The position numbers were made by a program, and so were the translations under genes. Source: a virus (taxonomy: Duplodnaviria > Heunggongvirae > Uroviricota > Caudoviricetes). From it: a stretch of DNA of 33,493 nt. The stretch's first letter is position 1; each line of letters opens with the position of its first letter. The stretch lies in the IMG/VR virus record IMGVR_UViG_2579779076_000013; one strand, written 5' to 3'. A model generated the notes under the pieces. The model made no database searches, had not been told where the DNA came from, and saw only the letters and a program-made list of their open reading frames with translations. Shown here piece by piece: positions 1-30,716 of the stretch.

Positions 1-1032
1 TCAAAAAATTCCTATTGATGTTGGTAGTGTTGCCAGCGGATTAAACCGTAATGCAGTTTCCAGGTGATCCGGTGCCAGATGTGCGTAACGCATAGTCATT
101 TTTATGTCGTGATGTCCGAGGATTTTTTGCAAAGCAAGGATATTTCCACCCGACATCATGAAATGCGCCGCAAACGTATGGCGCAGAACGTGTGTCAGTT
201 GACCGCGAGGGAGCACGATAGACGTTTTTTCCATCACGGATAAAAATTGAAAATAGCAGTCTGTAAAGAAATTGAACCCATCAAGCGCCATGATCTCTTC
301 GTAAAGCTCTTTACTGATAGGGATGCTTCTGTTTTTCTTCCCCTTCGTTCTTACAAAGGTAATTCGGTATTTGGTCACTTGCGAGCGGGTAAGATTTATT
401 GCTTCTCGCCAGCGTGCGCCTGTGCTTAGGCATATCTTGACTACCAGTGCCAGAATTGGGTCCTGACGTTTGCAATCAGCCAGCAGTTCAACAATCTGCT
501 CATGGGTAAGCCATGCCATCTCTTTTTCTGCGATGGTGAATTTTCGCATGTTCTCCAGTGGGTTCGGATACGACCATTCGCCCAGGCGGGATAGTTCGCT
601 AAAAACACTACTTAGATAGCTTTGCTCCAGGTTAATGGTGACCGGGCTTGCTCCTTTCTTCCATTTCTCGCTGAAGTAGATCTCGCCTGTCAGGCGTTTA
701 TCTCGATAGTGGGCAAACATTTTAGAGGTGAGATCGGTTGCAAGAGGATTGCCCAGAGCGCCAACCATCAGCAGCAATTTGTCATAGACATGCTGCCCAG
801 CAGTCAGAGATTTACCATGTAGTTTGAACCATAGCTCAACCACGTCTTTCAGGGTTCGACGATCCACTGATTCGCCCAGCCATGGCTTTGATTCGGTTTC
901 TTCCATAGTGTGACGCTCAAAAGCCAGAGCTTCGCCTTTGGTGGCGAATTGTTTACACACACGACGCCCACTTCGTCCGGCGGGGTAACATTCGCAAAGC
1001 CATTTCCCTGTGGTGAGTTTTCGTACTGCCAT
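1..1032 (-). CDS. int: tyrosine integrase (P2 Int-like)
   Basis: ORF track 1..1188, but P2 Int-like sequence begins at the internal Met (MAVRKLTTGKW...), which has a GGAGG RBS 9 nt upstream on the minus strand. Tyrosine-recombinase motifs present: TGARWRE, HVLRHTFA, MRYAHL. Stop codon at window positions 1-3. Confidence 0.9.
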   Translation of the reverse strand: MAVRKLTTGKWLCECYPAGRSGRRVCKQFATKGEALAFERHTMEETESKPWLGESVDRRTLKDVVELWFKLHGKSLTAGQHVYDKLLLMVGALGNPLATDLTSKMFAHYRDKRLTGEIYFSEKWKKGASPVTINLEQSYLSSVFSELSRLGEWSYPNPLENMRKFTIAEKEMAWLTHEQIVELLADCKRQDPILALVVKICLSTGARWREAINLTRSQVTKYRITFVRTKGKKNRSIPISKELYEEIMALDGFNFFTDCYFQFLSVMEKTSIVLPRGQLTHVLRHTFAAHFMMSGGNILALQKILGHHDIKMTMRYAHLAPDHLETALRFNPLATLPTSIGIF

Positions 1033-1063
1033 AAAAAATGCCCTCCAGTAGAGAGCATTTTTA

Positions 1064-1079
1064 CTGTATGTATAACCAG
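1064..1079. promoter_or_regulatory. LexA-box-like palindrome upstream of int
   Basis: TACTGTATGTATAACCAGTG fits CTG-N10-CAG with an AT-rich centre; one deviation from CTGT-N8-ACAG (CCAG). Lies about 32-47 bp upstream of the int start codon. Confidence 0.35.
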
Positions 1080-1220
1080 TGTCAATGTATGAAATCCTAC
1101 GACCATACATCTCACTGAAGCCATAATGAAGTTGGCTATTCTTTTTGCTATGTGAGCATGTAACTTTTGCGGTTAACCTGCGGCTCATTTTTATTTTAGA
1201 CGCAGATATAAAAGCAAAAG

Positions 1221-1427: not shown

Positions 1428-1997
1428 CTATTTAACATACTTGACTGTTAAACTTATAATTTTACCAATTATTTCAATGTCTTCTATCTTACATTCGAAG
1501 GCTCTGTTTCCACCCTCGACGAAGATTCTTCCACCGGGTAAACGAGTAATGTCACGGATCGTTATTTCGCCATCAATACTTATTACCCATTTACCATCAC
1601 GTATATCATCAAATTCCTTATCACAAATAAATTCAGAATTATTATCTGTGATTACAAAAAGATTCTTGAATGCCGACGGTAGAAATTCTCTATCGAAAAT
1701 ATAAAAACCGTCTTCACACAAAGCCCCATCAGATAATACATATTTAGCAACTTCCATAGTATTTGTATTACCTGAAGTTTGCTTTGAACCATGCCCGGTT
1801 GTGAGCCAATTAAGCGAAGTGCCTGTTTCAAGGGCGCACTGGATTACCCATTCTGCTGGGAATGAGTCACGCATGTAGCGTGTGGCGAGTGTACTTTTAG
1901 AGATTCCTAAATGATCGCACAACGCCTGTCGAGTCTTGAATCCATAAGCTTCTACCATGCGCTCTATAGCGCCTCGTCCGCCTTTCTCCAAATTCAT
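1428..1997 (-). CDS. cI: CI-type immunity repressor (N-terminal HTH), 186-like
   Basis: ORF track 1428..2003 begins at GTG; the ATG two codons in is more likely. HTH-like segment TRQALCDHLGISKSTLATRYMR. Divergent from the apl/cII operon, the classic switch arrangement. Confidence 0.75.
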   Translation of the reverse strand: MNLEKGGRGAIERMVEAYGFKTRQALCDHLGISKSTLATRYMRDSFPAEWVIQCALETGTSLNWLTTGHGSKQTSGNTNTMEVAKYVLSDGALCEDGFYIFDREFLPSAFKNLFVITDNNSEFICDKEFDDIRDGKWVISIDGEITIRDITRLPGGRIFVEGGNRAFECKIEDIEIIGKIISLTVKYVK

Positions 1998-2021
1998 GGT
2001 CACTCCAAGTGAACTTTTGTC

Positions 2022-4177: not shown

Positions 4178-5031
4178 GCACCATCCTGAAATGGGCGGGT
4201 AATAAAACCGCCATTATGCCAGAACTGAAAAAATACCTTCCTGCTGGCCCGCGACTGGTTGAACCTTTCGCGGGTTCTTGTGCTGTGATGATAGAGACGG
4301 ATTACCCCAGCTATCTTGTTGCGGATATTAATCCTGATTTAATCAACCTCTATAAAAAGGTTGCTGCTGATTGCGAGGCGTTTATATCTCGTGCCAGAGC
4401 TTTATTTGAGGAAGCAAACAGGGAGGTGGCTTATTACAACATAAGGCAGGAGTTTAATTACTCCACTGAAATTACTGATTTCATGAAAGCGGTATATTTC
4501 CTGTATCTCAATCGTCATGGTTACCGTGGGTTATGTCGCTATAACAAGAGCGGGCATTTCAACATTCCCTATGGGAATTATAAAAATCCGTATTTCCCTG
4601 AAAAAGAAATTCGCAAATTTGCAGAAAAAGCCCAGCGAGCAACGTTTATCTGCGCCAGCTTTGATGAAACGCTGGCGATGTTGAAGGCGGGGGATGTGGT
4701 GTATTGCGATCCGCCTTATTACGGTACGTTTTCCGGCTATCACACTGATGGCTTCACTGAGGATGACCAGTATCACCTGGCATCCGTTCTTGAACATCGA
4801 TCATCTGAAGGTCATCCGGTCATTGTTTCTAACAGTGACACATCCCTGATTCGTTCGCTGTATCGCAATTTCACTCACCACTACATCAAGGCAAAACGCA
4901 GCATCGGCGTGTCGGCTGGCGAGAGTAAATCTGCAACAGAAATCATTGCTGTTTCCGGGGCGCGCTGCTGGGTGGGATTTGATCCTTCGCGTGGCGTAGA
5001 TAGTTCTGCTGTGTACGAGGTGCGTGTATGA
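4174..5031 (+). CDS. dam: DNA adenine (N6) methyltransferase, Dam-like
   Basis: ATG at 4174 (GGAGG RBS) overlaps the upstream stop. Motif I FAGSCAV and motif IV DPPY ([12 protein letters not shown]). N-terminus [11 protein letters not shown] is typical of Dam. Confidence 0.85.
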
Positions 5032-7442
5032 GTCATGACGATATGAGCAACTCTAGCGGCTTTAACGAGGCCGCCGCATCATTTTCATGGAACGGCCCGA
5101 AAAAGGCCATTAACCCTTATCTGGACCCGGCGGAAGTTGCGCCGGAGTCTGCACTTTCAAACCTGATCACTCTGTATGCTGCCGATAACGAGCAGGAACA
5201 ACTGCGCCGCGAGGCACTGAGTGAGCAGGTCTGGGAGCGTTATTTCTTTAATGAATCCCGTGATCCTGTCCAGCGCGAAATGGAGCAGGATAAGCTCATT
5301 AGCCGGGCAAAGCTGGCGCATGAGCAGCAGCGTTTTAATCCAGACATGGTCATTCTGGCTGACGTCAACGCCCAGCCTTCCCATATCAGCAAGCCGCTGA
5401 TGCAACGTATTGAATACTTCAGCAGCCTGGGCAGGCCAAAGGCTTATTCCCGCTATTTGCGTGAGACGATTAAGCCATGTCTGGAACGGCTGGAGCATAT
5501 ACGCGACAGTCAGCTATCCACTTCTTTTCGCTTTATGGCGAGCCATGAAGGGCTGGACGGCCTGCTGATCCTGCCTGAAATGAGTCAGGATCAGGTGAAA
5601 CGCCTGTCCACCCTGGTAGCTGCGCATATGAGCATGTGCCTTGATGCAGCTTGTGGCGATTTGTATGCCACCGATGACGTTAAGCCAGAAGAAATCCGCA
5701 AGACATGGGAAAGGGTGGCAGCAGAAACCCTGCGACTGGATGTCATCCCACCTGCGTTTGAGCAACTCCGCCGGAAAAGAAACCGCCGTAAACCCGTGCC
5801 CTATGAACTCATTCCGGGTTCGCTAGCGCGTATGTTGTGCGCCGACTGGTGGTACCGGAAATTATGGAAGATGCGTTGCGAATGGCGGGAAGAGCAGTTG
5901 CGCGCTGTCTGCCTGGTCAGCAAAAAAGCATCTCCCTATGTCAGCTATGAAGCCGTGATGCATAAACGTGAGCAGCGCCGTAAGTCGCTGGAGTTTTTTC
6001 GTTCTCATGAACTGGTGAACGAAGACGGCGACACGCTGGATATGGAAGACGTGGTAAACGCCAGCAGCAGCAACCCTGCACATCGCCGCAATGAGATGAT
6101 GGCCTGTGTTAAAGGTCTGGAGCTTATCGCGGAAATGCGCGGTGACTGCGCCGTTTTCTACACCATCACCTGTCCGTCACGTTTCCATTCCACGCTCAAT
6201 AACGGCAGACCAAACCCAACCTGGACAAATGCGACGGTAAGACAAAGCAGCGATTATCTGGTCGGCATGTTTGCTGCATTTCGTAAGGCGATGCACAAAG
6301 CCGGGTTGCGCTGGTATGGCGTGCGGGTGGCTGAGCCGCATCATGACGGTACGGTTCACTGGCACCTGTTGTGTTTCATGCGCAAAAAAGACCGCCGTGC
6401 CATTACTGCATTGTTGTGTAAGTTTGCCATCCGTGAAGACCGCGAGGAACTGGGTAATAACACTGGTCCACGCTTTAAATCTGAGCTGATAAACCCGCGC
6501 AAAGGAACACCGACAAGCTACATCGCGAAATACATTAGTAAGAACATTGACGGGCGTGGTCTGGCTGGCGAGATCAGCAAGGAAACGGGTAAATCCCTGC
6601 GTGATAACGCTGAATACGTTAATGCCTGGGCGTCTCTGCATCGTGTTCAGCAATTCCGCTTCTTTGGTATTCCGGGGCGTCAGGCTTACCGTGAACTGCG
6701 ATTGCTGGCTGGTCAGGCGGCAAGGCAACAGGGTGACAAAAAAGCAGGTGCGCCGGTACTGGATAACCCGCGCCTTGATGCCATCCTGGCTGCTGCTGAT
6801 GCTGGTTGTTTTGCCACTTACATCATGAAGCAGGGTGGCGTACTGGTTCCCCGCAAATATCACCTCATCAGAACTGCTTATGAAATTAACGAAGAGCCGA
6901 CCGCCTATGGCGATCACGGCATTCGTATTTATGGCATCTGGTCACCCATTGCAGAGGGCAAGATCTGCACTCATGCAGTGAAGTGGAAAATGGTTCGTAA
7001 AGCCGTTGACGTTCAGGAGGCGGTAGCCGACCAGGGCGCTTGCGCCCCTTGGACTCGTGGCAATAACTGTCCCCTTGCTGAAAATTTGAACCAACAGGAG
7101 AAAGATAAATCAGCTGATGGGGACCCCAGAACGGACATTACCAGCATGGATGACAAGGAGTTGCACGATTACCTGCACAGTATGAGCAAAAAAGAGCGCC
7201 GGGAACTGGCAGCAAGGTTACGCCTGGTGAAACCGAAACGGCGTAAAGACTACAAACAGCGAATTACAGACCATCAGCGACTGCAGCTCGTGTATGAGCT
7301 GAAGTCCAGAGGATTTGATGGCAGCGAGAAAGAGGTCGATTTACTCCTTCGCGGAGGCAGTATTCCGTCAGGAGCAGGCCTGCGTATCTTCTATCGGAAC
7401 CAGCGTTTGCAGGAAGATGATCAGTGGCGGAACCTGTATTAA
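5028..7442 (+). CDS. A: replication initiation endonuclease gpA (HUH rolling-circle initiator)
   Basis: 804-aa ORF coupled to dam (ATGA overlap). HUH-type motif VHWHLLCF. Size and position match P2/186 gene A. Confidence 0.9.
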
Positions 7443-8311: not shown

Positions 8312-10081
8312 ATGGCTGAACTTGCGTCACAACCAACATCTATTCAATCTATTTATAACTGGTATATTGATAACAGACTCTTTGTTAATAGGAGATATCA
8401 ACGTAAATTAGTTTGGACATTAATTGAAAAGCAAAAGCTTGTAGATTCGATTTTGAAAAAATATCCAGTACCAGCAATACTTATTGCTGAAAGAGAAGGT
8501 TCCCCTGGTACGTATGAAATAATTGATGGTTTACAGCGTCTCCACGCCATTATGTCGTTTATAGAAACTTCTTATACGACCATTGATGGTAAAATATTCA
8601 ATCTTCAATTTTTCCCAACAGCTCAAACAAGAGCAGATGAAGGTTTTTTTGAGCCTGACATACAATCCGAAGTAATTTCGCAACGAGATGTGGGAACGTT
8701 TCTTGATTATCCATTAGCTTTGTCTGTGATGCGAAATGCTACTGAAAATGAGATCAATGATGTTTTTGATAGAATTAACTCGTATGGTCACAGACTTAGC
8801 GATCAAGAAAGAAGACAGTCAGGGGTGGAAAACAGTTTTTCAACAATGGTTAGAAATATTTCCTGTTCGATTCGAGGTGATGTTTCAAGTGATATATTAC
8901 CCCTTCGTGATATGCCATCCATTAGTATCGACTTGCCTTTAACCAGGCACGGGTATTCAGTTAAGGCTGATGATGTATTCTGGGTTAAACATGGCGTTTT
9001 GCGTTCAACTGATCTAAGAGACAGTATGGATGAGCAATGTATAGCTGATATTGCTGCTTGTGTAATATTAGGTGAGCCTATTGAAAGATCAAAGGTTGCG
9101 CTTGATAGGATTTATGATCAATCTCGTCCAGAATATATTCAGCTTAACTCTGCGCTTGAGGTTTATGGAGATACTAAGTTTATTGAAGAGTTTAAGTATT
9201 GTCTCGATGAAATTATTAAAGTCTGTGAAAATGGTACTTTCATAAAATTAAGGGAGTTGATTTTCCCCGATGCAAATAATAATGCATATCCATCTGTTTT
9301 TTCGATTTTATTCTTATCTTTCTATGAGTTGATTGTCGGCGAAAATAAAAAAGTGGCTAATTATTCTGAACTAAGGAACCGAATGAATAATATTGTCGAT
9401 AGAATTAATATAGGACGAAGAGCAGGAAGCGTTGATGAACGAAGAGCAAATATCGATGCTGTAAAAGGTTTGATTGGTGTATCTTTTGTGGTTTCTGATG
9501 AACCTCTACCTATTTATGAAAACCATACCGGCATGGACATAGAGAATTATATTAGAAGGTCTGAAGTGGAATTGGCTAACTATGAGTTAAAGCAGGGGAT
9601 GTTGAACTTAAATAATTCGAGAACATTGAATCAAGATGTTGTGCACAGAATTATTAATACTATATGTGCAATAGCTAATAATGGGAAAGGGACGCTCGGA
9701 AAAATTATCATTGGTGTTGCTGATGATGACCATGATGCAGAGAGAGTAAGACAGTTAGATCGTATTGAACCAAAACGAGTTGGTTTAAAAAACGTTGTAG
9801 GTGTTTCAAGAGAAGCTAGAGCGCTCGGTATTACTAATGAAGAGTATTTAACTCGGTGGGTCAATGCTATTCAAAATTCAGAGTTATCAGAGCCACTGAA
9901 AAGTAATGTTTTGTCAAAGATAGACTATAATGATTTTTATGGATTAGGGGTCATCGTTATTACGGTACCTCCCCAACAATCGATTTCCGCGGTAGGTCAA
10001 GATATTTATTGGCGAGAAGCTGATAAAACAACCTTAGCTCATGGCTTACAAATAGCGACAATAGCTACTAGATTTAGTTAA
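8312..10081 (+). CDS. DUF262/ParB-like N-terminal domain protein with C-terminal Schlafen/AlbA_2-like domain; candidate anti-phage defence cargo
   Basis: 589-aa ORF with AGAGGA RBS. N-terminal DGQQR-type motif (YEIIDGLQRLHAI) after a basic RRYQRK segment. C-terminal motif SEVELANYELK...ICAIANNGKGTLGKIIIGVADDD resembles the AlbA_2/Schlafen signature. No HxxP/HNH (DUF1524) motif seen. Visibly AT-rich. Confidence 0.8.
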   Translation: MAELASQPTSIQSIYNWYIDNRLFVNRRYQRKLVWTLIEKQKLVDSILKKYPVPAILIAEREGSPGTYEIIDGLQRLHAIMSFIETSYTTIDGKIFNLQFFPTAQTRADEGFFEPDIQSEVISQRDVGTFLDYPLALSVMRNATENEINDVFDRINSYGHRLSDQERRQSGVENSFSTMVRNISCSIRGDVSSDILPLRDMPSISIDLPLTRHGYSVKADDVFWVKHGVLRSTDLRDSMDEQCIADIAACVILGEPIERSKVALDRIYDQSRPEYIQLNSALEVYGDTKFIEEFKYCLDEIIKVCENGTFIKLRELIFPDANNNAYPSVFSILFLSFYELIVGENKKVANYSELRNRMNNIVDRINIGRRAGSVDERRANIDAVKGLIGVSFVVSDEPLPIYENHTGMDIENYIRRSEVELANYELKQGMLNLNNSRTLNQDVVHRIINTICAIANNGKGTLGKIIIGVADDDHDAERVRQLDRIEPKRVGLKNVVGVSREARALGITNEEYLTRWVNAIQNSELSEPLKSNVLSKIDYNDFYGLGVIVITVPPQQSISAVGQDIYWREADKTTLAHGLQIATIATRFS

Positions 10082-18054: not shown

Positions 18055-18493
18055 ACTGCAGAAGGTGGACGACTGGCTGAGTGCATTATTGGCGAATCTG
18101 GAGCCAGCCGCAAGAAGCCGCATGATGCGCCAGCTGGCGCAGGAACTGCGCCGGACACAGCAGCAGAACATCAGGATGCAGCGCAATCCAGATGGCAGCA
18201 GTTATGAGCCGCGCAGGGTAACAGCACGCAGCAAAAAGGGGCGCATCAAACGTCAGATGTTTGCGAAGCTGCGCACCACAAAATACCTGAAAACTGCCGC
18301 CAGCGCCGACTCTGCCAGCGTGCAGTTTGAAGGCAAGGTGCAGCGCATTGCCCGCGTTCATCACTACGGCCTGCGTGATCGCGTCAGTCGCAAAGGACCT
18401 GAGGTCCGTTATGCAGAGCGTCGTTTGTTAGGGGGGAATGATGAAGTAGAAACTCGAACTAGGAATATCCTAGTTCGATGGCTTATAAGTTAG
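18047..18493 (+). CDS. S: tail completion / virion morphogenesis protein gpS
   Basis: 148 aa at the P2 S position. The 3' end runs into AT-rich sequence and a hairpin. Confidence 0.8.
   Translation: MAELQKVDDWLSALLANLEPAARSRMMRQLAQELRRTQQQNIRMQRNPDGSSYEPRRVTARSKKGRIKRQMFAKLRTTKYLKTAASADSASVQFEGKVQRIARVHHYGLRDRVSRKGPEVRYAERRLLGGNDEVETRTRNILVRWLIS
18454..18478. repeat. perfect 11-bp inverted repeat with 3-nt loop at the S / moron convergent junction
   Basis: TCGAACTAGGA-ata-TCCTAGTTCGA, read directly from the sequence. Confidence 0.5.
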
Positions 18494-19149
18494 CTCTTAT
18501 TTTTGGATGAGCGTAAAAGACTCATTAATTCTATGATGATTTTTTCTTGAAGTAGATTGGGGGTTTTTTCGAAACTTACATTGTGTTCACGTAATGTTTG
18601 AATGATTTTGCCGAACTCATCAGTATCACCTTGCGATAGTAAGAATGCAATTCTCTGGTTGTCATAGTCGTTGCTCATTTGCATGTTGTATTTAATGAAC
18701 ACAATAAATAACCGAAGTATATATCCAGTGAATAATATTCCAGATAAGATTAGTAAATAAGGTGCCGCGGTTTCAATGGCTTTTTCAAAGGTGCTTTTAG
18801 TATTTAGGTATGTTGAATTAATACCTGATTCATTTTTTTTGATTATCGGGTTTGAATTTTTTGAAGCGTTGAGGTTTTCTGATGCTTGTGCAAGTTTATC
18901 AGTTAACTGTTGCATGATGGTGAACTTTTCGAAAGCAGATTCTATTTGCTGAGAGCTCAATCTAAGTGAGGCAAGTGCATTGTCACGCTTATTACTTTCT
19001 GCTTTATAAAAAATATAAGTTGCAGGAATGCAGAGTACAGCAGTTAATAAAATATATAAAAATAAGAGCGTAGTAATTTTAGAGCGGCTAGCTCGTTTTT
19101 CCATTGTTTTCAATATTTCGTTATATTTTTGTTCGTCAAGAACCATCAT
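18490..19149 (-). CDS. two-transmembrane membrane protein (antisense AT-rich moron between S and V)
   Basis: ORF track 18490..19251; the internal ATG at 19149 (AAGGA upstream) is preferred because the longer form overlaps the V start. Two TM segments (ITTLLFLYILLTAVLCIPATYIFY, AAPYLLILSGILFTGYILRLFIVFI) flank a roughly 100-aa Ser/Asn/Lys-rich region. Confidence 0.6.
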   Translation of the reverse strand: MMVLDEQKYNEILKTMEKRASRSKITTLLFLYILLTAVLCIPATYIFYKAESNKRDNALASLRLSSQQIESAFEKFTIMQQLTDKLAQASENLNASKNSNPIIKKNESGINSTYLNTKSTFEKAIETAAPYLLILSGILFTGYILRLFIVFIKYNMQMSNDYDNQRIAFLLSQGDTDEFGKIIQTLREHNVSFEKTPNLLQEKIIIELMSLLRSSKNKS

Positions 19150-19241
19150 CTTAAATTTTATCCTTGGAAGATACATTGTGCCATTTATAGCACAATGTAC
19201 CTGATCTACCGTAGAAGTCGATAATTCATCATCCTTAGTAG

Positions 19242-19820
19242 ATGAACGCACAACTAACAGAAATCATGCGCCTTATCACCAACCTGATCCGCACAGGGGT
19301 AGTCACCGAAGTGGACCGGGAAAACTGGCTTTGCCGGGTGAAAACGGGCGAGCTTGAAACCAACTGGATCAGCTGGCTGACGCTGCGTGCCGGGAATGCC
19401 CGCACATGGTGGCGACCATCGGAAGGTGAGCAGGTGGTGGTGCTGAGTCTGGGAGGCAATCTGGAAACTGCCTTTGCGTTGCCCGCTGTCTATTCGAATC
19501 AGTTCGCGCCACCTTCGACGTCGGCGGACGCCTGCGTGACAGAACATCCTGACGGTGGCTGGTTTGAATACGAACCCGCCACCGGGCGCTGGTATGTCAG
19601 GGGCATCAAATCCATGGTCATTGAGGCTGCCGACAACATCACCCTGAAAACCAGTGAGTTTGTGCTGGAGGCTGACCGCACGCGTATTAACAGCGAAGTA
19701 GTGATCAATGGTGGCGTTATCCAGGGCGGCGGTGCAATGAGTTCTAACGGAATTGTGGTTGATGCACATCAGCATACTGGCGTCCTGAAAGGCGGCGATA
19801 CAACCGGAGGCCCGGTATGA
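19242..19820 (+). CDS. V: baseplate spike protein gpV
   Basis: 192 aa with strong resemblance to P2 gpV (TWWRPSEGEQVVVLSLGGNLETAFALP..., SSNGIVVDAHQHTG). Confidence 0.9.
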   Translation: MNAQLTEIMRLITNLIRTGVVTEVDRENWLCRVKTGELETNWISWLTLRAGNARTWWRPSEGEQVVVLSLGGNLETAFALPAVYSNQFAPPSTSADACVTEHPDGGWFEYEPATGRWYVRGIKSMVIEAADNITLKTSEFVLEADRTRINSEVVINGGVIQGGGAMSSNGIVVDAHQHTGVLKGGDTTGGPV

Positions 19821-20176
19821 CGCTTTATAGCGGGATGAACAATACCAGCGGCAAAGTCATTACTGATATTGACCATCTGCGCCAGTCGGTGCGGGACATT
19901 CTGCTGACGCCGCAGGGTAGCCGCATTGCCCGTCGGGAATATGGTTCCCTGCTGTCGGCACTGATAGACCAGCCACAAAATCCGGCGTTACGCCTGCAGG
20001 TCATGTCGGCAGTGTATGTGGCGCTGAGTCGCTGGGAGCCACGGCTGATGCTGGATTCCATCACCATCAACAGCAACTTTGACGGTTCTATGGTGGTGGA
20101 GCTGACCGGGCGGCGGAATAACGGTGTGCCTGTGTCCCTTTCCGTATCAACAGGAGCAGAGAATGGCAGTGATTGA
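19817..20176 (+). CDS. W: baseplate wedge protein gpW
   Basis: 119 aa, coupled to V, at the P2 W position. Confidence 0.85.
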   Translation: MTLYSGMNNTSGKVITDIDHLRQSVRDILLTPQGSRIARREYGSLLSALIDQPQNPALRLQVMSAVYVALSRWEPRLMLDSITINSNFDGSMVVELTGRRNNGVPVSLSVSTGAENGSD

Positions 20177-21071
20177 CCTTTCGCAGTTGCCTGCACCGCA
20201 GATTGTGGATGTGCCGGACTTTGAGACGCTGCTTGCCGAACGCAAGGCTGAATTTGTGGCGCTTCATCCTAAAGATGAACAGGAAGCCGTGATCCGTACG
20301 CTGGAACTGGAATCTGAACCCGTCACCAAATTGTTGCAGGAGAACGCTTACCGTGAGTTGCTTCTGCGCCAGCGCATTAACGAAGCCGCGCAGGCGGTGA
20401 TGGTGGCTTACGCGATGGGCGGCGATCTTGACCAGCTCGCTGCCAACTACAACGTGAAACGCCTGACGGTGACGCCTGCTGATAATGATGCTGTGCCGCC
20501 CGTTGCGGCTGTGATGGAAAGTGATGAAGCGTTACGCCTGCGTGTGCCTGCAGCCTTTGAAGGGCTTTCAGTTGCGGGGCCAACTGCAGCTTATGAATTT
20601 CATGCCCGAAGCGCCGACGGTCGGGTGGCGGATGCCAGTGCAACCAGCCCGGCACCTGCAGAGGTGGTGCTGACTGTCCTTAGCCGCGAAGGCGATGGAA
20701 CTGCAGAAAAAGACCTGCTGGACGTGGTGGAAAAAGCTCTGAACAGTGAGAACGTCCGCCCGGTGGCTGACCGTCTTACGGTTCGCAGCGCAGAAATCAT
20801 CCCGTATCGCGTGGAAGCCACCATTTTTCTCTATCCGGGACCGGAAGCAGAGCCGGTAATGGCAGCGGCAAAAGCCAGTCTGCAGAAGTACATTGCCAGC
20901 CAGACGAGGCTTGGTCGGGATATTCGCCGTAGCGCCATCTTTGCTGCTCTGCATGTTGAGGGTGTTCAACGTGTGGAACTGGCTTCTCCGCTGGCGGATG
21001 TGGTCCTGAACAAAACACAGGCGGCATCATGTACGCAGTGGAGCGTAACCAACGGAGGAACGGATGAATAG
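20163..21071 (+). CDS. J: baseplate protein gpJ
   Basis: ATG at 20163 with AGGAG RBS (the track's longer form starts at 20124). Confidence 0.85.
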   Translation: MAVIDLSQLPAPQIVDVPDFETLLAERKAEFVALHPKDEQEAVIRTLELESEPVTKLLQENAYRELLLRQRINEAAQAVMVAYAMGGDLDQLAANYNVKRLTVTPADNDAVPPVAAVMESDEALRLRVPAAFEGLSVAGPTAAYEFHARSADGRVADASATSPAPAEVVLTVLSREGDGTAEKDLLDVVEKALNSENVRPVADRLTVRSAEIIPYRVEATIFLYPGPEAEPVMAAAKASLQKYIASQTRLGRDIRRSAIFAALHVEGVQRVELASPLADVVLNKTQAASCTQWSVTNGGTDE

Positions 21072-21669
21072 TCTGCTGCCACCGGGTTCAACTTCACTGG
21101 AGCGCCGACTGGCGCAAACCTGTAGCGGGATTTCTGATCTGCAGGTGCCGCTGCGTGACTTGTGGAATCCGGCTACCTGTCCGGTCAGCTTCCTGCCTTA
21201 TCTCGCTTGGGCGTTCTCTGTGGATCGCTGGGACGAGGGCTGGACAGAAAGCGTCAAACGCCAGGTAGTGAAGGATGCTTTTTATATTCATCAGCATAAA
21301 GGAACCACCAGTGCCGTGCGGCGGGTGGTGGAACCGTTCGGATTCCTGATCCGCATTATTGAGTGGTGGCAGACCGGGGAAACACCGGGCACGTTTCGCC
21401 TGGATATCGGCGTGCAGGACCAGGGCATCACTGAAGATACCTATCTGGAACTTGAGCGGCTGATAAGCGATGCCAAACCATGTAGCCGTCACATGATCGG
21501 CATGTCCATCAATCTGCAGACCAGCGGTCCGCATTGGGTGGGGGCCGCCAGCTATCTTGGCGAAGAAATCACGATCTATCCGTATATCAACGAAACAATT
21601 ATTTCCGGCGGCACCGCGCATGAAGGCGGGGCGGTCCATGTTATTGACACAATGAGAGTGAATCCATGA
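21064..21669 (+). CDS. I: baseplate protein gpI
   Basis: 201 aa, coupled to J and H. Confidence 0.85.
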   Translation: MNSLLPPGSTSLERRLAQTCSGISDLQVPLRDLWNPATCPVSFLPYLAWAFSVDRWDEGWTESVKRQVVKDAFYIHQHKGTTSAVRRVVEPFGFLIRIIEWWQTGETPGTFRLDIGVQDQGITEDTYLELERLISDAKPCSRHMIGMSINLQTSGPHWVGAASYLGEEITIYPYINETIISGGTAHEGGAVHVIDTMRVNP

Positions 21670-22745
21670 GCACAAAATTTTATACCCTGCTGACGGATAT
21701 TGGCGCGGCGAAACTTGCCAGCGCCGCCGCGCTCGGTGTGCCTTTAAAAATTACCCATATGGCGGTCGGCGATGGCGGCGGAACATTGCCAACGCCGGAC
21801 GCAAAGCAGACAGCATTGGTAAATGAGAAACGCCGGGCTGCGCTGAATATGCTCTATATCGAACCGCAGAACAGCAGCCAGATTATTGCTGAACAGGTGA
21901 TCCCTGAAAACGAGGGCGGTTGGTGGATACGTGAAGTGGGCCTGTTTGATGAATCCGGGGCATTGATTGCCGTGGGCAACTGCCCGGAAAGCTATAAGCC
22001 GCAACTGGCTGAAGGCAGCGGGCGCACCCAGACCGTGCGCATGGTGCTGATTACCAGCAGTACGGACAATATCACCCTGAAAATCGACCCTGCTGTAGTG
22101 CTGGCAACCCGCAAGTATGTGGATGACAAGGCACTGGAGCTGAAGGTGTACGTGGATGACCTGATGGCAAAACATCTTGCTGCACCGGACCCGCATTCAC
22201 AGTATGCACAGAAAGAAAGTCCGGCGTTTACCGGGACACCAAAAGCGCCAACGCCAGCGGCGGGGAATAATACTACGCAGCTTGCGACCACCGCGTTTGT
22301 TCAGGCGGCACTGACAGCCCTTATTAATGGTGCGCCAGCCACACTGGACACACTGAAAGAAATAGCCGCAGCCATTAACAATGATCCGAAATTCAGTACC
22401 ACCATTAACAATGCGCTGGCACAAAAAGCGCCGCTGTCGAGTCCTGCACTCACCGGAACGCCAACAGCACCTACTGCGGCACAGTCGGTCAACAATACAC
22501 AGATTGCCACTACAGCTTTTGTGAAATCGGCGATTGCAGCAATGGTGGGGTCTGCACCTGCGGCACTGGATACATTGAACGAACTGGCAGCGGCGCTGGG
22601 GAATGACCCGAACTTTGCCACGACAATGCTTAATGCGCTGGCAGGTAAACAACCGCTGGACAATACGCTGACTAATTTGAGTGGAAAGGATGTAGCTGGT
22701 CTTCTCGCATACCTTCGTTTAAGAAAATGCAGAGGTAACAGCTAA
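21666..22745 (+). CDS. H: tail fibre protein gpH, apparently the constant N-terminal part only (likely truncated)
   Basis: 359 aa with two copies of a fibre repeat (ATTAFVQAALTALINGAPATLDTLKEIAAAINNDPKF / ATTAFVKSAIAAMVGSAPAALDTLNELAAALGNDPNF). Ends ...LSGKDVAGLLAYL then RLRKCRGNS-stop, exactly at a hix/gix-like site. Confidence 0.7.
   Translation: MSTKFYTLLTDIGAAKLASAAALGVPLKITHMAVGDGGGTLPTPDAKQTALVNEKRRAALNMLYIEPQNSSQIIAEQVIPENEGGWWIREVGLFDESGALIAVGNCPESYKPQLAEGSGRTQTVRMVLITSSTDNITLKIDPAVVLATRKYVDDKALELKVYVDDLMAKHLAAPDPHSQYAQKESPAFTGTPKAPTPAAGNNTTQLATTAFVQAALTALINGAPATLDTLKEIAAAINNDPKFSTTINNALAQKAPLSSPALTGTPTAPTAAQSVNNTQIATTAFVKSAIAAMVGSAPAALDTLNELAAALGNDPNFATTMLNALAGKQPLDNTLTNLSGKDVAGLLAYLRLRKCRGNS
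22702..22727. other. hix/gix-like 26-bp recombination site (single copy)
   Basis: TTCTCGCATACC-TT-CGTTTAAGAAAA matches my recollection of hixL at 17/26 and gix at 15/26 positions. Sits at the 3' end of H, just upstream of the invertase gene. Confidence 0.35.
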
Positions 22746-22782
22746 CTGGCATCATCTCCGGTTTTTATTCAGGGGGATGATC

Positions 22783-23349
22783 ATGCTTATTGGCTATGTA
22801 CGCGTGTCAACAAATGACCAGAACACCGATTTGCAACGTAATGCACTGAACTGCGCGGGATGTGAGCGGATTTTTGAGGACAAAATCAGTGGCACTAAGT
22901 CCGACAGACCGGGGCTGAAAAAACTACTCAGGACACTATCGGCAGGAGACACGCTGGTTGTCTGGAAGCTGGACAGGTTAGGGCGCAGTATGCGGCATCT
23001 TGTTACGCTGATAGAAGAGTTGCGCCAGCGTGGCGTGAATTTCCGAAGCCTGACTGACAGTATTGATACCAGTACCCCAATGGGCCGTTTCTTTTTTCAT
23101 GTCATGGGTGCCCTGGCTGAAATGGAACGCGAACTGATAGTTGAACGTACCAGGGCAGGGCTGGCTGCAGCTCGTGTTAAAGGCAGAGTAGGTGGACGCC
23201 GTCCTAAGTTGACCAGCGAACAGTGGGCACAGATTGGGCGTTTACTCAAGGCCGGAGAATCAAGACAGCGTATTGCACTGATTTTTGATGTAGGCGTTTC
23301 TACCATTTATCGAAAATTTCCGGCAAATAAGAGCAATGAATCTCCCTGA
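22783..23349 (+). CDS. serine DNA invertase (Gin/Cin/Pin/Hin family)
   Basis: MLIGYVRVSTNDQNTDLQRNAL...TLVVWKLDRLGRSM...GRFFFHVMGALAEMERELIVERT is near-identical in pattern to Gin/Hin. C-terminal HTH. GGGGG RBS 6 nt upstream of ATG 22783. Confidence 0.9.
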   Translation: MLIGYVRVSTNDQNTDLQRNALNCAGCERIFEDKISGTKSDRPGLKKLLRTLSAGDTLVVWKLDRLGRSMRHLVTLIEELRQRGVNFRSLTDSIDTSTPMGRFFFHVMGALAEMERELIVERTRAGLAAARVKGRVGGRRPKLTSEQWAQIGRLLKAGESRQRIALIFDVGVSTIYRKFPANKSNESP

Positions 23350-23397
23350 ATCAGCTTTATTTTGATTATCCCTGAAAGCAGACAAATACCGTCATTT

Positions 23398-23415
23398 TGT
23401 GTGAATAACGGTACA
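23398..23415. promoter_or_regulatory. late-promoter activator (Ogr-type) site TGT-N12-ACA upstream of FI
   Basis: TGTGTGAATAACGGTACA centred about 85 bp upstream of the FI ATG, with a -10-like CAATAACT downstream. Confidence 0.5.
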
Positions 23416-23491
23416 ACTGCGCTTAGCTGTTTGTCAGGCACAATAACTTCAACATAGGGCGAAGCCTAATCCAATCAGGAGGTTCGCCACT

Positions 23492-24664
23492 ATGGCTCAG
23501 GATTACCACCACGGGGTGCGCGTTGTTGAAGTCAACGAAGGCACCCGATCTATTACCACGGTGAGCACCGCCATCGTGGGTATGGTCTGCACGGGCGATG
23601 ATGCCGATGCAAAAATGTTTCCTCTTAATAAACCCGTGCTGATCACTGATGTGCTGACTGCCAGCGGTAAAGCGGGTGAGTCCGGCACGCTGGCCCGTTC
23701 GCTGGATGCCATCGCTGACCAGGCAAAACCCGTGACCGTTGTTGTGCGTGTGCCGCAGGGTGAAACGGAAGAAGAAACCACGACCAATATCATCGGCGCA
23801 GTGACTGCTGAAGGTAAAAAAACAGGCATGAAAGCTCTGTTATCTGCCCAGTCACAGCTCGGCGTTAAACCGCGCATTCTCGGCGTGCCAGGCCATGATA
23901 ACAAAGCCGTTGCGACTGAGTTGCTGAGCGTGGCGCAAAGCCTGCGTGGGTTTGCTTACCTGTCAGCGTATGGCTGCAAGACAGTGCAGGAGGCGATCAC
24001 TTACCGTGAAAACTTCAGTCAGCGTGAAGGAATGCTGATCTGGCCCGACTTTACTGGCTGGGACACGGTGCTGAATGCCGAAGCAACGGCTTATGCCACC
24101 GCCCGTGCGCTTGGTCTGCGCGCCAAAATTGACGAGCAGACCGGATGGCACAAAAGCCTGTCCAACGTGGGCGTAAACGGTGTCACCGGAATTTCTGCTG
24201 ATGTGTTCTGGGATCTGCAGGACCCGGCAACCGATGCGGGACTGCTGAACCAGAACGACGTCACCACCCTTATCCGCAAAGACGGTTTTCGCTTCTGGGG
24301 TTCCCGCTGCCTGAGTGATGACCCGCTCTTTGCCTTCGAAAACTACACCCGCACGGCGCAGGTGCTGACGGACACAATGGCAGAAGCGCACATGTGGGCA
24401 GTGGACAAACCGCTGAACCCGTCGCTGGCGCGCGACATCATCGAGGGCATCCGCGCCAAAATGCGCAGCCTGGTCAGTCAGGGGTATCTCATTGGTGGTG
24501 ATTGCTGGCTGGACGAGTCGGTGAACGACAAAGACACGCTGAAAGCCGGAAAACTCACCATCGACTACGACTATACGCCAGTGCCGCCACTTGAAAACCT
24601 GATGTTGCGTCAGCGCATCACCGATCAGTACCTGGTGAATTTCGCCAGCCAGGTCAGCGCGTAA
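23492..24664 (+). CDS. FI: tail sheath protein gpFI
   Basis: 390 aa at the P2 FI position; AGGAGG RBS. Confidence 0.9.
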
Positions 24665-24673
24665 GGGGACAAC

Positions 24674-25189
24674 ATGGCTTTACCACGCAAATTAAAACAT
24701 CTGAACCTGTTTAACGACGGGAACAACTGGCAGGGGATCGTTGAGTCGCTGACGCTGCCGAAATTCACCCGCAAATATGAGAAGTATCGCGGCGGCGGAA
24801 TGCCGGGTGCAGTGGATGTGGATCTGGGGCTTGATGATAGTGCGCTGGACACAGAATTTTCCATTGGTGGTACTGAACTGCTGCTGTTTAAGCAGATGGG
24901 CAAAGCCACGGTGGATGGCATCCAGTTGCGCTTTACCGGCTCTATCCAGCGTGACGATACCGGGGAAGTGCAGGCCGTGGAGCTTGTGGTGCGAGGACGT
25001 CACAAAGAAGTGGATTCCGGTGAGTGGAAGACGGGCGAAAGCAACACCACCAAAGTGACCAGTACCAACAGCTACGCGAAGCTGACCATCAATGGTGAGG
25101 TGCTCTATGAAGTGGACCTTATCAACATGGTGGAAATTGTGGACGGTGTGGACCTGATGGAAGCGCACCGCAACGCCCTCGGGCTCTGA
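24674..25189 (+). CDS. FII: tail tube protein gpFII
   Basis: 171 aa directly after FI. Confidence 0.9.
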   Translation: MALPRKLKHLNLFNDGNNWQGIVESLTLPKFTRKYEKYRGGGMPGAVDVDLGLDDSALDTEFSIGGTELLLFKQMGKATVDGIQLRFTGSIQRDDTGEVQAVELVVRGRHKEVDSGEWKTGESNTTKVTSTNSYAKLTINGEVLYEVDLINMVEIVDGVDLMEAHRNALGL

Positions 25190-25243
25190 TGTATCTGAAC
25201 GGCGCGGGATTCCGCGCCAGAACCCAATTTACAGGACAACAAA

Positions 25244-25546
25244 ATGAGCGATAAGCAGACTGAAAAGACCATTCAACTGGATACCCCTATCAAGCGCGGT
25301 AAAACAGAAATTACCGAAATTGTGCTGCGTAAACCGCAGTCCGGTGCGCTGCGCGGTACACGCCTGCAGGCCATTATGGATATGGATGTGAACGCGATGA
25401 TGACCGTGATCCCCCGCATCTCCAGTCCGGCACTGACTGCACAGGAAATTGCAGAGATGGACCCGGCAGATCTCACTGCCATGTCGGTTGAGGTTGTCAC
25501 TTTTTTGTTGAAGAAGTCGGTGCTTGCCGGTTTACCGACAGCCTGA
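25244..25546 (+). CDS. E: tail assembly chaperone gpE
   Basis: 100-aa ORF preceding the tape measure gene, with a slippery heptamer near its 3' end. Confidence 0.8.
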   Translation: MSDKQTEKTIQLDTPIKRGKTEITEIVLRKPQSGALRGTRLQAIMDMDVNAMMTVIPRISSPALTAQEIAEMDPADLTAMSVEVVTFLLKKSVLAGLPTA

Positions 25547-25680
25547 CGGTTGACGATCTGGTGGCAGATATCGCCACCATTTTTCACTGGCCGCCATCCG
25601 TTACTGACGTTATGCCGCTGACCGAAGTGCTGGGATGGCGGTATAAAGCGATTCAGAGAAGCGGGGCCAACGATGAGTGA
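25244..25680 (+). CDS. gpE+E' fusion made by programmed -1 frameshift
   Basis: Slippery T TTT TTG at 25501..25507. The -1 frame is open from there to TGA at 25678..25680, overlapping the T start (ATG 25673). Confidence 0.6.
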
Positions 25681-28600
25681 TAACAACCTGCGCCTGCAGG
25701 TCATTCTTAATGCGGTTGACAAACTCACCCGCCCATTCCGTACTGCACAGGCCAGTTCGAAAGAGCTGGCTGGTGCAATCAGAAACTCCCGTGACGCATT
25801 AAAGCAACTCAATCAGGCGGGTAACAGCCTGGAAAAATTTCGCAAGCTGCAGGCCGATAACAAGAAGTTAGGCGACAGGCTGAACTATGCCAGACAGAAG
25901 GCTAATTTGCTTAGCTCTGAGCTGGAGGCGATGGAACAACCATCACAACGGCACCTTGTGGCTTTAGGTCGGCAAACGCTGGCAGTCCAACGCCTGGAAG
26001 AACAACAAAAATATTTGCAGAAGCAAACGGCGCTTGTGCGTGCAGAACTGTACCGGGCGGGAATTTCTGCGAAAGATGATGCGGGAGCAACTGCCCGTTT
26101 AGCCCGTGAAACATCACGTTATAACCAGGAATTGTCGAAACAGGAGGCGCGGCTGAAGCGACTGGGTGAAGCTCAGCGCAGGATGAATGCGGCGCGTGCC
26201 AGTTATGCCCGTTCGCTGGAGGTGCGCGATCGCATCGCAGGAGCCGGAGCCACTACCACGGCTGCAGGGCTGGCAATGGGTGCGCCAGTGATGGCGGCAG
26301 TAAAAAGCTATACCAGCATGGAAGATGCCATGAAAGGTGTGGCAAAGCAGGTCAATGGTCTGCGTGACGATAATGGCAACCGCACTGCACGTTTTTATGA
26401 AATGCAGGATGCCATCAAGGCTGCCAGCGAACAGTTGCCGATGGAAAACGGTGCTGTGGACTTCGCTGCACTGGTTGAAGGTGGTGCGCGCATGAACGTC
26501 GCAAACCCTGACGACAGCTGGGAAGACCAGAAACGTGATCTGCTGGCCTTCGCCAGCACAGCAGCAAAGGCGGCAACAGCCTTTGAGCTGCCAGCGGATG
26601 AACTGTCAGAAAGTCTGGGGAAAATCGCCCAGCTCTACAAAATCCCTACCCGCAATATTGAACAGCTCGGTGATGCGCTGAACTATCTGGATGATAACGC
26701 CATGTCGAAAGGGGCAGACATTATTGATGTCATGCAACGCCTGGGCGGTGTGGCGGACCGTCTGGATTATCGTAAAGCGGCGGCGCTGGGTTCCACCTTC
26801 CTGACACTGGGCGCTGCGCCGGAGGTTGCAGCCAGTGCAGCAAACGCGATGGTGCGTGAATTGTCCATTGCCACCATGCAGAGCAAGAGTTTCTTTGAAG
26901 GGATGAATCTGCTGAAACTCAATCCTGAAGTGATTGAAAAGCAGATGACGAAGGATGCGATGGGAACCATCCAGCGCGTGCTGGAGAAGGTGAACGCACT
27001 GCCGCAGGACAAGCGTCTGTCTGCCATGACTATGTTGTTTGGTAAAGAGTTTGGCGATGACGCGGCGAAACTGGCAAACAACCTGCCGGAACTGCAGCGC
27101 CAGTTAAAGCTGACAGCGGGCAATGATGCGCTCGGTTCCATGCAGAAAGAATCCGACATCAACAAGGACTCACTTTCTGCTCAGTGGTTGCTGGTCAAAA
27201 CCGGAGCGCAGAACACCTTCAGCAGCCTGGGCGAAACGCTGCGCCAGCCGCTGATGGATATTCTGTACACGGTGAAAAGCGTCACGGGGGCGTTGCGTCG
27301 CTGGGTGGAAGCTAACCCGGAACTGACGGGCACACTGATGAAAGCAGCGGCTGTTGTGGCTGCGGTTACCGTGGGACTCGGCACCTTAGCGATGGTGTTA
27401 GCTGCAGTGCTGGGGCCGCTGGCAGTGATCCGTCTGGGATTCTCTGTGCTGGGCATCAAAACGTTACCTTCCGTTACGGCAGCAGTAACACGAACCAGCA
27501 GCGCGTTGTCCTGGCTGGCTGGCGCTCCACTGGCAGTGCTGCGACGCGGGCTTGCTTCATCGGGTAACGCAGCGGGTTTACTTACTGCGCCGTTGTCGTC
27601 TTTGCGCCGTACGGCATCACTGACGGGAAATGTCCTGAAAACTGTAGCAGGTGCGCCGGTTGCACTATTGCGGTCTGGATTATCCGCTTTACGTGCTGTT
27701 GCTGTGATGTTTATGAATCCTCTGGCGGTACTGCGCGGTGGACTGGCTGCCGCAGGCGCGGTGCTTCGTGTGCTTGCATCTGGTCCGCTGGCGATGCTGC
27801 GCGTTGCCCTGTATGCCATATCTGGTCTGTTAGGTGCTCTGCTCAGTCCGATAGGTCTTGTGGTTACTGCACTGGCGGGCGTGGCGCTGGTTGTCTGGAA
27901 ATACTGGCAACCCATCACCGCATTTCTCGGTGGCGTGGTTGAAGGATTCAAAGCGGCGGCAGCTCCCATCAGTGCTGCATTCGAACCACTTAAGCCTGTG
28001 TTTCAGTGGATTGGCGACAAAGTACAGGCGCTGTGGGGCTGGTTTACTGATCTGCTGACGCCCGTTAAGTCGACCTCTGCCGAACTGCAGAGTGCAGCGG
28101 CAATGGGGCGGCGATTCGGAGAGGCACTGGCGGAAGGGCTGAATATGGTCATGCATCCGCTGGACTCCCTGAAATCCGGCGTTTCCTGGTTGCTGGAGAA
28201 ACTCGGCATTGTCAGTAAAGAGGCCGCAAAGGCAAAACTACCGGAAAGCGTGACGCGTCAGCAACCTGCGACGGTGAATGCAGACGGTAAAGTGATGATG
28301 CCATCGGGTGATTTTCCGTCATGGGGATATGGCTTTGCGGGGATGTATGACAGCGGCGGCTATATCCCGCGCGGGCAGTTTGGCATCGTCGGTGAAAACG
28401 GGCCGGAAATTGTTAACGGCCCGGCAAACGTGACCAGCCGGAGAAATACAGCTGCACTGGCTGCGGTTGTTGCCGGAATGATGGGCGTTGCTGCCGCGCC
28501 TACAGAGCTTCCACCGTTACATCCTTTGGCACTTCCCGCGAAAGGCGGCGAAGCGATGGTGATTCGTGCAGCCACTGTGCCGCCCGTTCAACGGATTGAG

Positions 28601-30419: not shown

Positions 30420-30638
30420 ATGATGATTTGCCCACTGTGTGGAAGTGCCGCCCATACTCGCAGCAGTTTTCAGGTATCTTCATTGACCAAAGAGCGTTAC
30501 AACCAGTGCCAGAATATTAACTGCAGTCATACTTTTGTAACCCATGAAACTTTTGTTCGTTCGATTGCAACGCCAAAAGAGTCAAATCCGGTTCAGCCGC
30601 ATCCAATGAAATCAGGACAGGTGGCGCTCTCTCTTTGA
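30420..30638 (+). CDS. ogr: late transcription activator Ogr (zinc finger)
   Basis: 72 aa from ATG 30420 (GGGGAGA RBS). CPLCGSAAH...CQNINCSHTF matches the Ogr/Delta zinc-finger pattern of P2 Ogr. Confidence 0.85.
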   Translation: MMICPLCGSAAHTRSSFQVSSLTKERYNQCQNINCSHTFVTHETFVRSIATPKESNPVQPHPMKSGQVALSL

Positions 30639-30716
30639 CGCTGCCGCCATTTTGTCGCCATCGTTAAAAAACAGTGCTTCTAACGTCATGATTTTAAACG
30701 GCATAAATTTCAGGCA

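Follow-up and report, generated by a model that had tools for sequence, protein, structure and literature searches.

A P2-like prophage of Escherichia coli with a truncated tail-fibre gene, a single hybrid crossover site and a Gin-family invertase

The DNA considered here is a stretch of 33,493 nucleotides (IMG/VR record IMGVR_UViG_2579779076_000013; referred to below as the window), which is a P2/186-like (Peduoviridae) prophage situated next to ybjL in an Escherichia coli draft genome (GCA_000647455.1, contig AQGP01000043.1). The prophage extends from the integrase gene (1..1188, minus strand), CI and CII to ogr (30420..30640), beyond which lie the chromosomal genes ybjL and ybjM. This report concerns its tail-fibre locus, where the fibre gene H enters a crossover site for DNA inversion and stops shortly beyond it, and where an invertase gene follows in place of the remainder of the fibre. 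The features of the locus are as follows.

21666..22745, plus strand: truncated tail-fibre gene H, from the open reading frame and its translation (359 amino acids; stop codon 22743..22745)
21666..22715, plus strand: H residues 1-350, the constant, baseplate-proximal part (N-terminal collar domain and two fibre repeats)
22716..22742, plus strand: H residues 351-359, right half-site and flank read out of context in the H frame
22702..22727, no strand: single hybrid 26-bp crossover site, very probably a deletion scar, TTCTCGCATACCTTCGTTTAAGAAAA
22702..22713: left outer half-site of the scar
22714..22715: central TT of the scar
22716..22727: right outer half-site of the scar, the junction lying between 22715 and 22716
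22728..22782, plus strand: right-site flank, found upstream of the invertase gene in every intact relative examined and now carrying the end of the H frame
22783..23349, plus strand: intact Gin/Hin/Cin/Pin-family DNA invertase (188 amino acids, Ser9, C-terminal helix-turn-helix), with only one site in cis
23398..23415, plus strand: TGT-N12-ACA dyad, about 75 bases upstream of the FI start codon, read from the sequence
23492..24664, plus strand: intact tail sheath gene FI, the right-hand limit of the degenerate locus

The truncated fibre gene, its crossover site and the invertase

The tail-collar fibre N-terminal domain (Pfam PF12571) covers residues 1-150 of H (E 9e-65). The constant part of the fibre ends at the left crossover site, which the reading frame enters at ...LLAYL, and translation of the window's open reading frame gives the C-terminus as ...LSGKDVAGLLAYL followed by RLRKCRGNS and the stop; codon 351 (CGT) begins exactly at 22716, the first base past the junction. 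A preliminary description of this DNA, made from the sequence alone, had stated that the fibre-like sequence of H stops at a hix/gix-like site and that H ends after nine unrelated codons, and that reading was borne out. The H proteins of the relatives examined, by comparison, are 422-580 amino acids long and run on beyond ...LLAYL into GLGE..., and the exact 359-residue protein is recorded on one contig only, the 158-kb AQGP01000043.1 itself; the short H is therefore not a complete fibre conserved among related phages, an alternative that the preliminary description had left standing. The C-terminal receptor-binding part and the chaperone that a functional P2-type fibre requires are both lacking, H stopping 9 codons past the site.

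A search with the last 56 residues of H found the RLRKCRGNS tail in none of the protein-database matches inspected, which is a weak test given a candidate set of 85 proteins; the matches consisted solely of short fragments from the ends of contigs and of parts of normal H genes with frameshifts. Dozens of contigs of about 240 bp in public E. coli draft genomes consist of the end of the constant part of H running into the crossover site, and these are a signature of assemblers breaking at this invertible segment. The idea that the 359-residue protein is a normal short fibre of fixed type was rejected, as the Klebsiella phages that have no invertase (Kp4860-7) possess a 473-residue H which continues past LLAYLGLGE and is accompanied by a 158-residue assembly gene.

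The invertase gene starts 37 bases after the H stop codon, although the program-made list of open reading frames places its start 6 bases earlier, at 22777. Pfam identified a Resolvase domain (PF00239, E 1.7e-52) and an HTH_7 domain (PF02796, E 1.2e-15) in the product, residues 1-184 of which aligned with the Gin structure PDB 3UJ3 (E 8e-93), with S9 located within MLIGYVRVSTNDQ; 139 of the 188 residues (74%) are identical to those of Mu Gin. By domain content and by sequence alike the protein belongs to the Gin/Hin/Cin/Pin group of small serine recombinases, as the preliminary description had proposed for the gene directly after H. The open reading frame list contains no G-like or Z/fun gene between H and FI, and a tblastn search of the 33.5-kb window with 14 proteins from five relatives revealed no homologue of a variable fibre part (Hv), of Tfa or of the small open reading frames described below. 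The earlier statement that neither an invertible segment nor a fibre-assembly gene is present was thus upheld, and its proviso that a G-like chaperone might be encoded elsewhere in the prophage fell with the same search of the window.

The sequence at 22702..22727 is the window's only match to the pattern derived from the sites of the relatives, for which the chance expectation in the window is approximately 0.04 matches even with 3 mismatches allowed. It agrees with the left and right sites of related phages at 22 of 26 positions each, and with gixL and gixR of Mu at 16 of 26 each, over the conserved frame TT...A.ACC-NN-.GTTT...A.AA; the site hence aligns with genuine crossover sites, a point on which the preliminary description could have been overturned. 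No second crossover site was found in the window, where a switching system would have two in inverted orientation.

Intact relatives and the missing segment

Five complete E. coli genomes (ECE228, ECE218, UC4224, UC4315 and UC4316) match positions 19242..26200 of the window at 99.9% identity, in two pieces with 1455 extra bases between them. The right arm of the window (22696..27200), including the invertase gene, has 99.9% DNA identity to UC4224/UC4315, and the invertase protein is 100% identical to those of ECE228, UC4224 and UC4315. In these three strains H is either 463 or 580 amino acids long depending on the orientation of the segment, and its first 350 residues are 100% identical to those of the window's H. 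The invertible segment of the intact relatives measures 1453 bp, and the 1455 bp absent from the window equal this segment plus one copy of the central dinucleotide. UC4315 is recorded as a mutant derived from UC4224, and its segment, when reverse-complemented, gives that of UC4224 exactly (4475..5927 in both loci); the locus flips on a laboratory time scale.

More distant relatives at 96-97% identity, namely Cartapus (NC_070909), 500465-1 (NC_049342) and Klebsiella KP12, match positions 21000..24000 in two pieces as well. The extra 1.5-1.9 kb between the pieces encodes two pairs of a fibre C-terminus and an assembly gene, one pair on the plus and one on the minus strand. In the lineage of ECE228 (seen at 23803..24235 of the ECE228 locus, within the invertible segment), each alternative end of H is followed by a tiny open reading frame of 65 or 88 amino acids that is annotated as hypothetical; at the same position Cartapus and 500465-1 have the usual tail-fibre assembly proteins of 131-200 amino acids.

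Taken with the 1455 bp missing relative to prophages of 99.9% identity, these comparisons sustain the earlier proposal that the locus is a deletion product from which the variable part of the fibre and its chaperone were removed. The ancestor, in all probability, had the arrangement of constant H, left site, a 1453-bp segment with two H C-termini and small downstream open reading frames, right site and Gin-family invertase, and a single recent event most likely removed the segment. To what the preliminary description offered, the comparison adds a precise ancestor, the size of 1455 bp, the placing of the breakpoint exactly where the recombinase cleaves, and another case of independent origin. 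The parental sites and the site of the window compare as follows.

Left site of intact relatives: left half TTCTCGCATACC, centre TT, right half GGTTTGGGAGAA
Right site of intact relatives: left half TTCTCCCAAACC, centre AA, right half CGTTTAAGAAAA
Site of the window: left half TTCTCGCATACC, centre TT, right half CGTTTAAGAAAA

The site of the window is an exact left/right hybrid. Its positions 1-14 carry the bases of the left site (G6, T9, TT13-14), and its positions 15-26 carry those of the right site (C15, AA20-21, A24). At positions 13-14 the left site has TT and the right site AA, and at position 15 the left site has G and the right site C; the switch from left to right was resolved to an interval of zero length, that is, the single bond between site positions 14 and 15 (22715 and 22716). 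Microhomology at the junction is zero, no base being common to both sides of the breakpoint. In BLAST comparisons with each of the intact relatives, the left and right segments share 20-28 bases over the site, namely 22701..22720 for the first three relatives. The junction coincides with the position of top-strand cleavage, and Table 3 of the EC958 genome paper divides such sites in the same manner, into 14 and 12 bases, with the central dinucleotide and a staggered cut just after it (PMC4134206).

The right-site flank is identical in 500465-1, KP12, ECE228, UC4315 and UC4224, and differs at 2 bases in Cartapus. A weak hairpin with a run of T at 22744..22763 came from a consensus scan only, and a promoter and terminator scan of 22500..23550 gave nothing beyond the shuffle expectation. 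Since the invertase gene lies on the same strand as H, 37 bases past its stop codon and with only the weak hairpin between, one may speculate that late transcription reads into it.

A second scar and the origin of the deletion

A 301-base probe spanning the junction was compared with 5426 complete E. coli genomes, 1455 of which gave a match. The probe was contiguous in a single one of these 1455, that of strain EC16. This is a finished genome in which the PGAP annotation records H as a pseudogene without its C-terminus, and its prophage occupies the same ybjL site and is approximately 96-97% identical to that of the window. The scar in EC16 consists of TTCTCACATACC joined directly to CGTTTATGAAAA, giving 24 bp (20143..20166 of the EC16 locus) from which the central dinucleotide is missing. 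The nearest intact relative of EC16, KE58 (98.5%), has TTCTCACATACC-TT-GGTTTGGGAGAA as its left site and TTCTCCCAAACC-AA-CGTTTATGAAAA as its right site, which indicates that EC16 joins the outer halves of its own lineage; judged from these bases, its scar is an independent event. At this join, the duplex end that bottom-strand cleavage leaves at the left site meets the one that top-strand cleavage leaves at the right site. Without the recombinase it would be hard to account for two independent events in which every end point falls on one of the four scissile positions. The scar pattern TCTCRCATACCN{0,2}CGTTTAWGAAAA had 0 matches in the genome, viral and metagenome contig collections, which yielded neither a further case nor the source strain.

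Serine invertases cut both strands of a site with a 2-nt stagger and exchange half-sites, and between inverted sites the normal exchange results in inversion. Switching systems of this type include a Fis-dependent recombinational enhancer within the 5' part of the invertase gene. We propose that the 1455-bp deletion of the invertible segment most likely came about through the invertase, by an aberrant joining of outer halves. The enzyme would have cut both sites in its usual way, with a 2-nt stagger, after which the two outer half-sites would have been joined to one another, rather than each outer half to the opposite inner half; we infer that both the cleavage and the joining were the work of the invertase itself. 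With sites in inverted orientation, a joint between outer halves sets a TT overhang opposite a TT overhang. In the window the top-strand TT would have been kept through replication or repair of the TT/TT heteroduplex, in EC16 both overhangs would have been trimmed prior to blunt joining, and the excised 1.45-kb circle, being unable to replicate, would have been lost.

A mismatch of the core nucleotides stops ligation by Hin in the recombinant configuration (PMC4817059). With ligation blocked by a mismatched core and deletion disfavoured by the enhancer-dependent synapse, the product is expected to be rare, and the block on ligation would account for its occurrence in one of 1455 genomes and in none of the three collections. 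Studies of Cin and Hin on cores that do not match agree in that exchange is strongly disfavoured; those studies dealt with inversion at quasi-sites or on engineered plasmids, whereas the window would represent a natural deletion that joins the outer halves of inverted sites. In the Cin work of Iida and Hiestand-Nauer from 1986 and 1987, an exchange between non-pairing cores, when it occurs, reportedly keeps one of the two dinucleotides, with which the TT retained in the window agrees.

Several points weigh against an origin by invertase-mediated joining of outer halves. Wild-type invertases are strongly biased against deletion, through both invertasome topology and core mismatch, so that the reaction is one they normally avoid. 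The two scars differ, TT being kept in the window and the dinucleotide lost in EC16, and the latter requires extra trimming and ligation by the host or else a 2-base sequencing error; the 24-bp scar represents either a different outcome of the same exchange with mismatched cores or an assembly error of 2 bases. The window derives from a draft assembly and was read from the assembled sequence alone, the inversion between UC4224 and UC4315 could reflect catalysis in trans by another invertase of the strain, and the search for a relocated segment or for another P2-like prophage covered the 33.5-kb window.

A true deletion that arose independently of the invertase, through replication slippage, microhomology-mediated end joining or RecA recombination between the two partly similar sites, would have had suitable material to act on. 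The left and right sites are identical at 18 of 26 positions when read in the same direction, the short direct matches TTCTC, ACC and GTTT are common to both because each site is a near-palindrome, and decaying prophages commonly delete between short repeats. The junction of the window, however, has no base common to either side of the breakpoint, and slippage and microhomology-mediated joining therefore do not explain it; neither can the EC16 junction be obtained by collapsing the shared ACC, which would give ACC-AA-CG and not ACC-CG. Since the two independent events both end exactly on the known scissile positions of both sites, we regard an origin of this kind as unlikely. A legitimate deletion between direct repeats in an ancestor with multiple sites, similar to the Min system or a shufflon, was also rejected, as the relatives at 99.9% identity have two sites and the right outer half is always inverted.

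The junction might also be an artefact in which a short-read assembler skipped an intact segment present in mixed orientations, given that the source is a draft assembly and that invertible segments are known to break or confuse assemblies, as seen from the many contigs of about 240 bp that end at the site and from published work (PMC4134206). The intact locus, however, lacks the junction string CATACCTTCGTTTAAG in both of its orientations, and genuine reads therefore offer no overlap or k-mer path from which the string could arise. Had the assembly collapsed, the collapse should lie within the inverted repeat, where the inner halves are, and not between the outer halves; furthermore, the finished genome of EC16 has the same kind of scar. 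An artefact is accordingly very unlikely. Hardly conceivable is the notion that a short H with one site, built of two bona fide half-sites and accompanied by an intact invertase, represents a functional or ancestral 'empty' docking state awaiting a cassette and not a loss. The state is unique (one contig with the exact protein, no RLRKCRGNS tail in the inspected matches, one contiguous junction in 1455 genomes), the allele sits within an intact lineage of 99.9% identity, and the nine terminal codons are merely the right-site flank read through; moreover, integration of a circle at one site would yield directly repeated sites, in contrast to the inverted sites found in every intact relative examined.

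Consequences, related systems and the rest of the prophage

Phage P2 cannot do without H and G, and receptor binding is a function of the C-terminal part of H. Since these functions are essential and the receptor-binding end has gone, particles of the prophage should not adsorb. Induction would probably still give lysis, with release of fibre-less, non-adsorbing particles unless a compatible fibre is supplied by another prophage, and it is reasonable to regard the prophage as non-infectious or dependent on fibres in trans, as had been suggested at the outset. The remainder of the phage is well preserved. Its genes, identified with Pfam, follow the P2/186-like order int-CI-CII...A, Q P / O N M L X, lysis, R S V W J I H ... 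FI FII E E' T U D ogr. Those for Q, P, O, N, M, L, X, holin, lysozyme, LysB, LysC, R, S, V, W, J and I are full length and 95-100% identical to their counterparts in ECE228, the same is true of FI, FII, E, E', T, U, D and ogr, and the replication genes are intact as well. Relative to ECE228, only H is shortened, and the two small open reading frames and the second H end are gone. For annotation this means that a prophage of complete appearance is very probably unable to adsorb through a single lesion; H should best be annotated as a pseudogene and the invertase as an orphan.

FI is full length and 100% identical to FI of ECE228, with sheath domains assigned by Pfam. We take the TGT-N12-ACA dyad upstream of it to be the motif of Ogr-dependent P2 late promoters, which suggests that the deletion has left the operon for sheath and tube with a promoter of its own.

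The locus is a degenerate member of the well-known invertase-driven systems for tail-fibre switching and not a new kind of system; it is degenerate because the defining features, two inverted sites and an invertible segment, are absent. With the G segment and Gin of Mu (and likewise C/Cin of P1 and P/Pin of e14) it shares a constant fibre that runs into a 26-bp site and an invertase just beyond the right site, and gixL and gixR of Mu share their conserved frame with the site of the window. It differs from that type in having one hybrid site, in lacking the invertible segment, alternative ends and chaperones, and in belonging to a P2/186-like and not a Mu-like phage. Phi2 of EC958 is a P2-like version of the system with an invertible H segment. 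Among the P2/186-like relatives, ECE228, UC4224 and UC4315 have the same tail region at 99.9%, with the constant H part, the invertase and the outer half-sites identical to those of the window, and the tail region of Cartapus and 500465-1 is 96-97% identical; the intact relatives carry segments of 1.45-1.9 kb with two H C-termini and assembly genes, whereas the window has none.

PinQ of Qin and PinR of Rac in strain K-12 are Gin-family orphans like the invertase of the window, and neither pinQ nor pinR is known to have a working invertible segment of its own. The K-12 prophages are old and heavily decayed, in contrast to the prophage of the window, which is otherwise complete and bears a base-exact scar of what was very probably a single recent loss. 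PinQ, which belongs to a cryptic prophage, acts in trans on the P segment of e14 (PMC12529663). By analogy, it is possible that the orphan invertase of the window acts in trans in the same manner. The case is one of ordinary prophage decay by an uncommon, readable route. It is doubtful that P2-like prophages are recurrently disarmed in nature, in a single step, by outer-half joining through their own invertase, with an intact orphan invertase that is still expressed acting in trans on invertible segments of other prophages of the cell, in the manner of PinQ on e14; if true, the two types of scar (TT kept and dinucleotide lost) would document from nature what a serine invertase makes of a mismatched-core exchange in vivo. 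For recombination biology, the base-exact scars would be instances from nature of a product against which invertases are built, a deletion across inverted sites with a mismatched core.

Three further regions set the prophage apart from some of its relatives. An AT-rich gene (33.5% GC) at 18490..19251 on the minus strand is inserted, opposite to its neighbours, between the tail genes S and V. Its open reading frame of 253 amino acids (219 in the annotation of relatives) has two hydrophobic stretches, is 100% identical in ECE228 and is absent from EC16; no family match was found for the product except DUF3112, which scored below its cutoff. A low-GC (36%) cargo gene at 8312..10081 on the plus strand, located between a DinI-like gene and the portal gene Q, encodes a 589-residue protein in which GmrSD_N/DUF262 forms the N-terminal domain and Schlafen AlbA_2 the C-terminal one, and its top PADLOC match was NsnA (E 9e-26). 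The slot is occupied differently in relatives, by DUF4145 and three open reading frames in ECE228 and by another DUF262 protein in EC16; the cargo here is variable, and the gene at 8312..10081 probably serves in defence against phages. Finally, the immunity region is mosaic relative to ECE228: CI (1428..2003, minus strand) has 191 amino acids as against 313 and is 48% identical over the shared part, and CII is 100% identical.

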